Origin: a virus
Lineage: Duplodnaviria > Heunggongvirae > Uroviricota > Caudoviricetes
Strand: one strand, 5' to 3'
DNA length: 18,683 bases
Virus record (IMG/VR): IMGVR_UViG_2703718816_000002
Location: 1 to 18,683 of that record
Shown: positions 13,910 to 15,952 of the stretch, one piece after another
Layout of the letters: each line of letters starts with the position of its first letter
How positions within the stretch are numbered: position 1 is the first letter of the stretch
The notes under the pieces: model-generated
The model's input: only the letters and a program-made list of their open reading frames with translations
What the model was told of the DNA's origin: nothing
The model's database searches: none
Position numbers and translations under genes: made by a program

Positions 13910-13949
13910 ATGACGATTGTGCCAATACTTTCTCCATCAATGACGCCCC

Positions 13950-13979
13950 TTGACTGCATGGAATCCAATTTGTTATGTA
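13950..13979 (+). promoter_or_regulatory. sigma70 promoter candidate for the membrane-protein cargo gene
   Basis: -35 TTGACT (13950-13955), 18-bp spacer, -10 TATGTA (13974-13979) with a TG 2 nt upstream (extended -10 context). Confidence 0.4.
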
Positions 13980-14017
13980 ATGTGTGTTGATATTTTTGAG
14001 TTGTTAATGGTGTTACT

Positions 14018-14731
14018 ATGGATGACAGTGCTCTGTTCAGAAACTCTTCACTTTTTGTTGCTTATATGGGCTGTCTCGGATGGGGGAGCGCTTATTTCTA
14101 TGGATGGGGTACTTCATTTTACTATGGCTTTCCATGGTGGGTTGTCGGGGCTGGTGTCGATGATGTAGCACGAAGTTTGTTTTATGCTGTGACAGTTATC
14201 GTTATATTCCTTATTGGATGGGGAGTTGGTATTGTTTTCTTTTTGGGCATAAAACAAAAGCGCAATATACAAAATTTGAGTTTTATCCGGCTTTTTCTCG
14301 CGATATTGCTGCTTTTTATTCCACCTGTTCTGGAGTTTTCTGTAATTCATCAGCATGTTGAGCCAGATGTACTGATTTTCTGCGTTCTTGCTGCCTTTGC
14401 AATCACGCTTTTTGTCAGGTCTGGAAGAAGACTTGTTTCAGTCAAATGTTTTTCGGAAATGTCTGTTATTCGCCATCACCGAATTGAGTTCATGATGGCT
14501 GGGTTTATGATTTATTTCTGGGCATTCTCTCTTATTGCCGGTTGGTACAAACCACAGTTTAAGAGGGAATATCAGGCGGTCCACTATGAGAATGTATGGT
14601 ATTACATTATTGCGCGCTATGATGATCGTCTGGTGTTATCGAAATCATACAGGAGTGGGGGTAAGAAATTCGTTATATTTAATAGCGGAAATATTAATGA
14701 TTTTGAAATTAATACTGTCAGAGTACGTTAA
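14018..14731 (+). CDS. hypothetical polytopic inner-membrane protein (237 aa), AT-rich cargo gene
   Basis: ORF-track 14018..14731. At least five hydrophobic segments rich in Phe/Trp/Tyr (for example LFYAVTVIVIFLIGWGVGIVFFLGI, LSFIRLFLAILLLFIPPVLEFSVI, FMMAGFMIYFWAFSLIAGWY). Very AT-rich. Has its own promoter candidate and is bracketed by the diverged direct repeats. No family recognised. Confidence 0.6.
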   Translation: MDDSALFRNSSLFVAYMGCLGWGSAYFYGWGTSFYYGFPWWVVGAGVDDVARSLFYAVTVIVIFLIGWGVGIVFFLGIKQKRNIQNLSFIRLFLAILLLFIPPVLEFSVIHQHVEPDVLIFCVLAAFAITLFVRSGRRLVSVKCFSEMSVIRHHRIEFMMAGFMIYFWAFSLIAGWYKPQFKREYQAVHYENVWYYIIARYDDRLVLSKSYRSGGKKFVIFNSGNINDFEINTVRVR

Positions 14732-14768
14732 AATTTCCTGAGTAATAAAGATTTTACTGCCCGGCATT

Positions 14769-14814
14769 GAGCGGTTTTTTTATGCCAGAAAAATGGTGCA
14801 GTACATAAAATGTG
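14769..14814 (+). repeat. copy 2 of the diverged ~45-bp direct repeat
   Basis: GAGCGGTTTTTTTATGCCAGAAAAATGGTGCAGTACATAAAATGTG, 37 nt after the stop of the membrane-protein gene. Aligns with 13865-13909. Confidence 0.6.
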
Positions 14815-14904
14815 CAGGTGGTTATTAATACCGGTCTTTCAGCTTGCTGGCTTTTTTGACAAGAGTTATTGGTGTGTCACGTTAACCGGAAAAGGGAAAA
14901 AGAC

Positions 14905-15102
14905 ATGCTGAAACAGCAGGATATGACCGAAACTGCCAGAGTGGTGTTTAATGAATTAAGCGTCACCGAACCGGCGACAGTCGGGGAGATTGCGCAGAAT
15001 ACTTACCTTTCACGCGAACGCTGCCAGTTAATACTGACCCAGCTTGTTATGGCGGGTCTGGCAGACTATCAGTGCGGTTGTTACAGACGCCTTCAGTCCT
15101 GA
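14905..15102 (+). CDS. hypothetical small protein (65 aa), possible winged-helix DNA-binding fold
   Basis: The ORF track starts at a TTG at 14869; the first ATG is at 14905 with a weak purine-rich RBS. ATVGEIAQNTYLSRERCQLILTQLVMAGL looks like an HTH recognition helix. The stop lies inside the terminator hairpin. Confidence 0.4.
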   Translation: MLKQQDMTETARVVFNELSVTEPATVGEIAQNTYLSRERCQLILTQLVMAGLADYQCGCYRRLQS

Positions 15103-15115
15103 AGGCTTTTTATTT
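15089..15115 (+). terminator. Rho-independent terminator after the small ORF
   Basis: GCCTTCA gtcc TGAAGGC (7-bp stem, 4-nt loop) followed by TTTTTATTT. Confidence 0.6.
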
Positions 15116-15135
15116 GTGGTGAATGGGCGGCTGGT

Positions 15136-15144
15136 GGGGGGGGG
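15136..15144. repeat. homopolymeric G9 tract upstream of the AraC-family regulator gene
   Basis: Nine consecutive G (GGTGGGGGGGGGAGA), about 55 bp upstream of a TATAAT hexamer (15198-15203) and about 95 bp upstream of the regulator start codon. Confidence 0.9.
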
Positions 15145-15238
15145 AGACACCTGTCAGTCCTTTGCTTATGTGTTGATGATAATTTACCTTTTGGGGCTAT
15201 AATTGAGCTAACCAATTGCTAATGAAAGTAAAATTATA

Positions 15239-15952
15239 ATGGCTGTTGTCTGTTCAGTTATCATGGTTTGCTCCCCAATTAATATTTTTCTTGAAAAGGA
15301 TACGTTGTCACTTAAGCCAGGCTCAGTCGTTCTGGCCACCAAATGCATCAGGGAGCTTTTCCTTATGCATTATGGCAAAGTTAAAATTGTCGATATAAGC
15401 GAATCCGTCGTAAGTCAATATCTGGAAAGTCAGCATAAGCTGACGAGGACTCGTCTGACTGACATTCCGCTTTACCTGTTGCTGGAACCCAACAATCCTG
15501 CGTTGGCTGCGGCTTTAATTACCAGCCAGGGATTTTCCGGAGAGGCCACGGATATGTTTCTTATGATGGCCTGCCTGTCTCTGTTTGAAACAGATGAACG
15601 GATGTCATTGTTTTTAAGTGGATGTTTATCCAGCATAAGTGTCAAAGTCAGGGCGATAATTCAGACAGATATATCAGCAAGCTGGACGCTTGGTGCGATT
15701 GCTCTACAGTTGCATATGAGTGAGAGTTTGTTAAAGACAAAACTGAAAAATGAAGGGGGCATGTTCAGTCGCTTGTTGCTGGAAGAGCGGATGCGTGTTG
15801 CTGTAAATATGTTATGTTCCCGGTATGGATATGGACAGGCTGTAGCAGAAAAATGCGGTTATTCAAGCAGGTCCTACTTTATTTCTGTATTTCACCGCTA
15901 TTATGGCTTCCCGCCAGACAGATATGTATCCAGGCAAGGGCTTGATTATTGA
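15239..15952 (+). CDS. AraC/XylS-family transcriptional regulator (prophage cargo)
   Basis: 237 aa. The C-terminal 100 aa has the two-HTH AraC signature: WTLGAIALQLHMSESLLKTKLK ... GYGQAVAEKCGYSSRSYFISVFHRYYGFPPDRY. AT-rich with no obvious Shine-Dalgarno. Located between the cargo genes and the tRNA cluster. Confidence 0.8.
   Translation: MAVVCSVIMVCSPINIFLEKDTLSLKPGSVVLATKCIRELFLMHYGKVKIVDISESVVSQYLESQHKLTRTRLTDIPLYLLLEPNNPALAAALITSQGFSGEATDMFLMMACLSLFETDERMSLFLSGCLSSISVKVRAIIQTDISASWTLGAIALQLHMSESLLKTKLKNEGGMFSRLLLEERMRVAVNMLCSRYGYGQAVAEKCGYSSRSYFISVFHRYYGFPPDRYVSRQGLDY

Follow-up and report, generated by a model that had tools for sequence, protein, structure and literature searches.

The locus described here raises the question whether three neighbouring genes in the late region of a prophage, encoding a polytopic membrane protein, a small winged-helix-like protein, and an AraC-family regulator, form one functional unit or came together independently. 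They are located in an 18,683-nt stretch of DNA (IMG/VR virus record IMGVR_UViG_2703718816_000002, hereafter called the window), whose gene order is that of a lambdoid prophage lacking stx and having a late region like that of Stx phages. An earlier reading made from the letters alone (the sequence-only reading) had placed three genes between a tR′-like terminator and a tRNA cluster, and its coordinates and gene calls were correct: three intact open reading frames (ORFs) of 237, 65, and 237 aa follow the late antiterminator gene Q on the + strand.

14018–14731, + strand: polytopic inner-membrane protein of 237 aa; PF27470 (labelled 'TfpB'), 'STM1630 family', phrog_1521 (2.6e-85)
14905–15102, + strand: winged-helix-like protein of 65 aa; phrog_331 (8e-38); the start at 14905 is that of PGAP
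15239–15952, + strand: PsrB-type AraC/XylS regulator of 237 aa, intact; PF00165 (2.9e-13), PF12833 (2.4e-9)

Among 5,426 complete Escherichia coli genomes, to which all genome counts given below refer, the AraC-family gene was found in 797, the small gene in 2,135 (~39%, with up to 7 copies per genome), and the membrane gene in 460. The small gene and the AraC-family gene were adjacent in 725 genomes, the membrane gene and the small gene in 179, and all three genes occurred together in 18. Because of this distribution, the idea of a three-gene operon was rejected, and the proposal of the sequence-only reading that the two other proteins could form a unit with the regulator had to be given up. 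Between tR′ and the tRNAs there is very probably a mosaic of three independent cassettes, with the AraC-family gene as an orthologue of psrB, and not an operon or a functional unit.

Several of the 18 genomes with all three genes belong to isolates of the Stx2k lineage (STEC series, China). The one inspected, STEC409, has a prophage with the identical order of Q, membrane gene, small gene, AraC-family gene, and three tRNAs (94.6% nucleotide identity), and stx2kAB follows directly. The slot of the AraC-family gene is taken by a DNA methylase gene in Sakai Sp9 and strain 2013C-4282. The membrane gene occurs without the small or the AraC-family gene as partner in phage 434, UPEC957C, Yersinia, and Salmonella, and no membrane gene stands beside the PsrB-type copy of O157:H7 (EDL933, Sakai Sp11). 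The assumption that this interval normally holds only regulatory RNA proved wrong, since Sakai Sp9, the Stx2a phages, and 2013C-4282 have the same small ORF and a DNA methylase gene there. The description of the three genes as AT-rich applies to the membrane gene (GC content 0.398) and the AraC-family gene (0.438), but not to the small gene (0.51; window 0.465). A consensus scan confirmed a promoter-like site before each gene. With respect to terminators, the prediction was right for the small gene; the membrane gene is followed by a decayed tR′ copy, and terminator folding revealed none for the AraC-family gene.

Identity and surroundings of the AraC-family gene

The assignment to the AraC family was confirmed by matches above the gathering cut-offs to PF00165 (two stretches) and PF12833 within residues 155–230, which represent the AraC/XylS DNA-binding domain. 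A pseudogene, which the sequence-only reading had considered, is not present, as the reading frame is intact. The PDB matches were the DNA-binding domains of GadX, Rns, CsvR, and ToxT, with GadX (3mkl, 2.1e-18) as the best. Using the NCBIfam models, we obtained a full-length YdeO-like alignment (NF007407, 2.9e-30, 105.7 bits, cut-off 348) and, for the C-terminal region comprising residues ~107–232, matches to GadX (NF007432, 6.8e-25, 87.8 bits, cut-off 500) and to HilD, the latter also far under the equivalog cut-off. An assignment as YdeO or GadX orthologue was rejected, because the scores were far below the equivalog cut-offs; the protein represents a related, paralogous prophage lineage. 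It was assigned to phrog_1450 (3.4e-98). In the comparison with YdeO, GadX, and GadW of the chromosomal GAD island and with the prophage regulator AppY, it showed a profile likeness to YdeO and GadX without being an orthologue of any of them.

Much closer relatives are present in O157:H7. The protein shares 235 of its 237 residues with WP_000301797.1 of EDL933, encoded in the OI-57 region, and likewise with the Sakai Sp11 copy, which corresponds to an extended ORF of ECs_2191. The corrected EDL933 assembly has the gene at 1,905,274–1,905,987, with the same small ORF 5′, tRNA-Ile and tRNA-Arg 3′, and a PerC/Pch gene downstream; the cargo of Sp11 comprises pchB, nleG2-3, nleG6-2, and nleG5-2. 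At ≥99% nucleotide identity, the gene was found in 590 genomes, including O157:H7, O111, O121, and O145 strains, and the copy of the Stx2k phage phiSTEC1575 encodes a protein with 92% identity.

Two regulators of this type have been described in O157:H7, PsrB (z2104) in OI-57 and PsrA (z1789) in OI-50, which are 90% identical to each other (PMC10877973). The Psr proteins are AraC-like, are found only in prophages, and are encoded beside effector loci and Pch regulators (PMC10877973). PsrA and PsrB induce GadE and YhiF, which leads to an indirect repression of type III secretion encoded by the enterocyte effacement locus (LEE); PsrB binds directly to the gadE and hdeA promoters, activates them, and raises acid resistance (PMC10877973).

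Judged by sequence and position, the window gene is an orthologue of psrB (z2104, OI-57/CP-933O; Sp11 ECs_2191). The encoded proteins have the same length, and both genes are preceded by the same small gene (64/65 aa identical to Sp11 ECs_2192) and the same promoter region and stand directly 5′ of ileZ/arg tRNAs. The suggestion that the prophage carries an AraC-like regulator of a kind that rewires the host thus found support. Compared to O157, the window copy shows the exchanges A103V and V135A, both outside the helix-turn-helix (HTH) region. The carrier differs in having a Q82-type antiterminator, an additional membrane gene 5′, and three instead of two tRNAs. Moreover, neither the window nor the 32-kb locus L001, whose last genes are head genes, showed pch or effector genes, and a bovine faecal isolate is the closest relative of the host.

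The AraC-family gene was absent from Sakai Sp6, Sp10, Sp9, Sp14, and Sp12 and from EDL933 CP-933N; of the regions inspected in these two genomes, the OI-57 region of EDL933 and Sp11 were the only ones that carried it. The PsrA paralogue was not located, as no AraC-family gene was present between Q and TerB in CP-933N of the corrected EDL933 assembly, the site of z1789 according to the literature. In this assembly (NZ_CP008957, 1630000–1679000), CP-933N adjoins potC, and TerB is a pseudogene. The literature places the small RNA (sRNA) EvrS between z1789 and the esterase gene z1793. In the new assembly, the former EvrS coordinates would lie close to the Q–TerB leader, which raises the question whether EvrS is a PR′–tR′ leader RNA.

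Another prophage-encoded AraC-like regulator, the PatE-type protein of Sakai Sp1 (ECs_0287; CP-933H, OI-8), has a similar length, can be aligned from end to end, and has the same hdeA target region as PsrB (PMC10877973). It differs by its low identity (37%), by its location in another prophage, and by its position therein.

Two features were found upstream of the window gene:

15136–15144, + strand: poly-G tract (G9), ~32 nt 5′ of the -35 region of the psr promoter
15176–15203, + strand: candidate promoter, ATGATA-16-TATAAT, the best match in the region (10/12, consensus scan), 35 nt 5′ of the AraC start codon

The sequence of this promoter region is identical in EDL933 and strain 86-24. The poly-G tract comprises 11 residues in E. 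coli OkiPb01712, a strain from bovine faeces which is the closest relative of the window (99.9% identity over the queried 2.6 kb), nine in 86-24, and eight in EDL933, and is interrupted in the Stx2k phage. These differences could result from slipped-strand variation or from homopolymer sequencing errors. A second pair of small gene and psr with 99.9% identity is located elsewhere in the OkiPb01712 genome (NZ_AP042676.1, 3520585–3521647), and therefore this strain has at least two psr-bearing prophages.

The membrane gene between two tR′-like elements

The sequence-only reading had recognised no family for the membrane and the small protein, but both belong to catalogued ones, PF27470/STM1630 family and phrog_1521 in the first case and phrog_331 in the second. 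In the HMM and structure searches it had recommended, the regulator showed a GadX/YdeO-like profile, and the other two proteins were placed in families, with no structural or PDB match.

The membrane protein has 4–5 hydrophobic spans, its C-terminal domain of ~55 residues is beta-rich, and its N-terminal motif GWGSAYFYGWG..YYGFPWW is kept extremely well across the homologues. A precomputed PF27470 label was present on 104/104 homologues, some of which are named 'STM1630 family protein' in RefSeq; the membership of the window protein is based on these labels of its homologues. The family is small, with 71 representative clusters in 1.84 billion proteins, mostly from Enterobacterales. A literature search for 'TfpB' returned only papers on type IV pili and chemistry, and the source of the Pfam label was not traced. 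Whereas a first AlphaFold2 model based on 25 sequences was too poor for use (pLDDT 61), a model from a 40-sequence alignment had a pLDDT of 80 and a pTM of 0.72. A fold search with the latter revealed, beyond generic helices, no similar solved or viral structure.

The protein is 55% identical to CPT_434_68 of phage 434 and 47% identical to STM1630, the Salmonella protein encoded beside sseJ, and resembles both in length and architecture. In phage 434, as in the window, the membrane gene directly follows a Q82-like gene and a terminator, and the two Q proteins share 76% identity. STM1630, in contrast, is a chromosomal orphan outside any prophage late region, and a promoter and a transcription start site of its own have been mapped; its expression was compared between strains 4/74 and D23580. 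Deletion of STM1630 caused no growth or macrophage phenotype.

The following elements surround the membrane gene of the window:

13772–13800, + strand: PR′-like promoter candidate, TTGCAA-17-TATATT, just past the Q stop codon (consensus scan)
13817–13876, + strand: late leader with a hairpin at 13817–13845, followed by the tR′-like intrinsic terminator AAAACCCGTGACCGAGCGGGTTTTTT at 13851–13876 (RNA fold)
13950–13979, + strand: candidate sigma-70 promoter of the membrane gene, -35 region TTGACT (13950–13955), 18-nt spacer, extended -10 region TGtTATGTA (13971–13979); conserved
14757–14781, + strand: degenerate second tR′ copy CTGCCCGGCATTGAGCGGTTTTTTT after the membrane gene; fold z = -0.91, no better than shuffles

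The tR′-like terminator has a calculated folding energy of -24.1 kcal/mol (z = -4.61), which was equalled by none of 200 shuffled sequences. Its core of ~55 nt is present in two copies on either side of the membrane gene, at 13848–13900 and 14750–14810, with the common pattern GAGCGG(G)TTTTTTA..CC..AAAAA..ACAT.AAA.GTG. In 434, UPEC957C, and STEC409, the terminator core likewise stands 5′ of the membrane gene. The promoter hexamers are conserved in the same three relatives, even though the 434 protein is only 55% identical. Matches to Stx2a phages start at window position ~14770, and homology to ordinary Stx2 phages thus sets in again at the second tR′ copy. Between the Q modules and the downstream backbone, the tR′ element looks like a joint formed by recombination.

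The membrane gene has the attributes of a moron: a predicted promoter of its own, flanking tR′ copies, a GC content of 0.398 versus 0.465 for the window, and a presence limited to 460 genomes. Because of the bracketing tR′ cores, the conserved promoter, and the resumption of Stx2-phage homology at the second copy, we interpret it as a moron that entered at the tR′ element by insertion or recombination. Alternatively, its product might be a late protein of the lytic cycle, such as a Q-dependent lysis modulator or a blocker of DNA injection. The gene is the first ORF past tR′ behind three types of antiterminators, namely PF06323 in the window and in 434, PF06530 in Yersinia contigs, and another one in UPEC957C, and therefore it would head the late transcript. 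We regard this alternative as unlikely, since divergent relatives retain a sigma-70 promoter with an extended -10 region between tR′ and the gene, since the Salmonella orthologue is a chromosomal orphan with its own promoter and start site, and since the gene is missing from most lambdoid phages.

The small gene and the borders of the interval

The start codon at 14905 leads to the 65-aa form of the small protein; a longer form of 77 aa would start with TTG at 14869. The protein resembles winged HTH proteins, but the scores for TrmB (17.7 bits versus a threshold of 25.6; 0.0032) and MarR_2 (14 versus 27 bits) did not reach the Pfam thresholds, and no PDB sequence match was found. This resemblance is therefore suggestive, and a firm membership can be assigned by sequence to phrog_331 only. 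In a PADLOC search, neither the membrane protein nor the AraC-family protein had a match and the small protein gave marginal ones only (0.0029 and 0.036), so that no defence assignment resulted.

Two elements flank the small gene:

14782–14811, + strand: weak promoter-like candidate, ATGCCA-18-TAAAAT, 5′ of the small gene (consensus scan)
15089–15111, + strand: intrinsic terminator GCCTTCAGTCCTGAAGGC followed by T5, overlapping the small-gene stop codon (terminator scan, fold z = -2.25)

This good terminator, together with the promoter candidate at 15176–15203, parts the small gene from psr. The small gene is present in Stx2a, Stx2c, and Stx2d phages, in phiP27, and in SfV, and more distant versions with 50–80% identity of the protein occur in Klebsiella, Citrobacter, and Hafnia phages. 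The next gene downstream encodes a DNA methylase in Sakai Sp9, the Stx2a phages, and strain 2013C-4282, whereas it is psr in Sp11, EDL933, the Stx2k phages, and the window. As it is widespread and precedes either a methylase gene or psr depending on the phage, we assign the small gene to the conserved late-leader backbone of Stx phages rather than to the cargo, and place it at the upstream edge of a variable slot. The late leader of Stx2 phages (Q, tR′, small ORF, DNA methylase, ileZ/argN/argO, stx2) has the same backbone order and the same tRNAs as the window, and the small ORFs are 95–98% identical. The window differs by the lack of stx and by the AraC-family gene in place of the methylase gene.

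A further reading gives one of these two proteins a more central role in the phage, and we consider it improbable in either of its forms. The PF27470 protein might be a lysogenic-conversion or superinfection-exclusion factor kept at the head of the late transcript, because the gene occupies the first position past tR′ with at least three unrelated antiterminator families, has a conserved extended -10 promoter, and encodes a protein without structural relative. Or the 65-aa protein might regulate the late leader and toxin expression, because its gene is present in ~39% of the genomes and stands directly 5′ of stx2 in many Stx phages.

The borders of the interval and the adjoining elements are as follows:

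13093–13764, + strand: late antiterminator Q of the phage-82 type (PF06323, 1.4e-92), upstream border
15942–15970, + strand: promoter-like candidate, TTGATT-17-TATTAT (consensus scan), overlapping the last codons at the 3′ end of the AraC-family gene, ~10 nt before the first tRNA
15981–16232, + strand: tRNA cluster of the ileZ-argN-argO type, the Stx-phage set (ARAGORN; Rfam RF00005, three matches), downstream border
15981–16056, + strand: tRNA with anticodon CAT (ARAGORN), tRNA-Ile in the annotation of RefSeq relatives
16066–16142, + strand: tRNA with anticodon TCG (ARAGORN)
16156–16232, + strand: tRNA with anticodon TCT (ARAGORN)
16342–16550, + strand: STnc100, full-length (Rfam, 176.7 bits)
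16551–16610, - strand: anti-GcvB sRNA AgvB (Rfam, 56.6 bits, barely reaching the gathering score; AsxR, with 46.8 bits, under its cut-off)

The promoter-like site at 15942–15970 could drive the tRNAs in the lysogen. The stx slot, with the tRNAs on one side and the large DUF6645 ORF on the other, contains the two sRNA genes STnc100 and AgvB instead (16342–16610). Upstream of the interval, the gene order comprises recombination genes, N, cI, cro, cII, O, P, ren, the nin region, two antirepressor genes, RusA, and Q, followed by the late region of the Stx-phage type. Directly 5′ of the antirepressor genes, Rfam models identified c4-a1b1 targets, isrK, and C4 antisense RNA (10698–10899), which represent an immI-like control of Ant as in P1/P7, here within a lambdoid prophage.

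Proposed expression and its alternatives

Given the observed identity, distribution, and anatomy of the genes and the conserved promoter, we propose the following for promoter use, for PsrB activity in this host, and for what the membrane and small proteins may do. In the lysogen, the promoter of each cassette probably drives its expression. The membrane gene would be a self-contained moron consisting of promoter, gene, and decayed terminator copy between two tR′ elements, and the small gene would mark the edge of a slot for either a DNA methylase gene or psr. In the lysogen, a sigma-70 promoter of its own would direct the transcription of the psrB orthologue, and the C-terminal double HTH of the encoded protein, which is GadX/YdeO-like, would bind in trans to the gadE and hdeA promoters of the host and thereby switch on glutamate-dependent acid resistance. 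In LEE-positive hosts, the PsrB orthologue may act via GadE and YhiF to repress type III secretion indirectly. Once the prophage is induced, RNA polymerase that starts at PR′ and is modified by Q should transcribe the three cassettes and the tRNAs without stopping.

An action of the AraC-like protein chiefly in cis on phage genes (tRNAs, stx, late genes) instead of on the host appears very unlikely to us. Such a function would suit the constant position of the gene directly 5′ of phage tRNA genes, its location ~370 nt 5′ of stx2k in Stx2k phages, and the overlap of its 3′ end with the promoter-like site of the tRNAs, but PsrB is reported to bind the gadE and hdeA promoters of the host directly and to have phenotypes in acid resistance and type III secretion (PMC10877973), and Stx-phage late regions function without the AraC-family gene, the slot being filled by a methylase gene or empty.

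A single cargo unit of membrane sensor, small DNA-binding adaptor, and AraC regulator, as might be suspected from three adjacent genes on the same strand, from their conservation at 94–99.9% identity in the 18 genomes including Stx2k Shiga toxin-producing E. coli (STEC), and from the small gene that nearly always precedes the AraC-family gene, is extremely unlikely in view of the rarity of the membrane–small pair and of the triple, the O157:H7 copy of PsrB type lacking a neighbouring membrane gene, the partnerless membrane genes, the promoter-like site before each gene, and the terminator between the small and the AraC-family gene.

Several points weigh against the mosaic of independent cassettes with a psrB orthologue. 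The small gene stands directly 5′ in 725 of the 797 genomes with the AraC-family gene (91%), and the two genes might be functionally linked. The OI-57/Sp11 copy was equated with z2104 by its position in OI-57/Sp11 and not by Z locus tags, which makes this assignment a probable one. The function of PsrB is carried over from O157:H7 on the basis of 99% identity and would have to apply to the window protein as well. Finally, the role of the membrane protein as an envelope or superinfection-related lysogenic-conversion protein is a guess.

PsrB, the leader architecture of Stx phages, and both protein families were already known; the 65-aa winged-helix protein and the PF27470 membrane protein are two very common uncharacterised proteins. 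The mosaic suggests a swap site between tR′ and the tRNAs, at which a methylase gene, psr, the membrane moron, or nothing may stand. With a bovine isolate as the closest genome, it appears that a regulator of the PsrB type, acting on acid resistance and type III secretion, travels in prophages outside the classical enterohaemorrhagic E. coli lineages. In Stx2k STEC, the cassette lies directly 5′ of the toxin genes, so that the toxin and a regulator of acid resistance can move on one phage.

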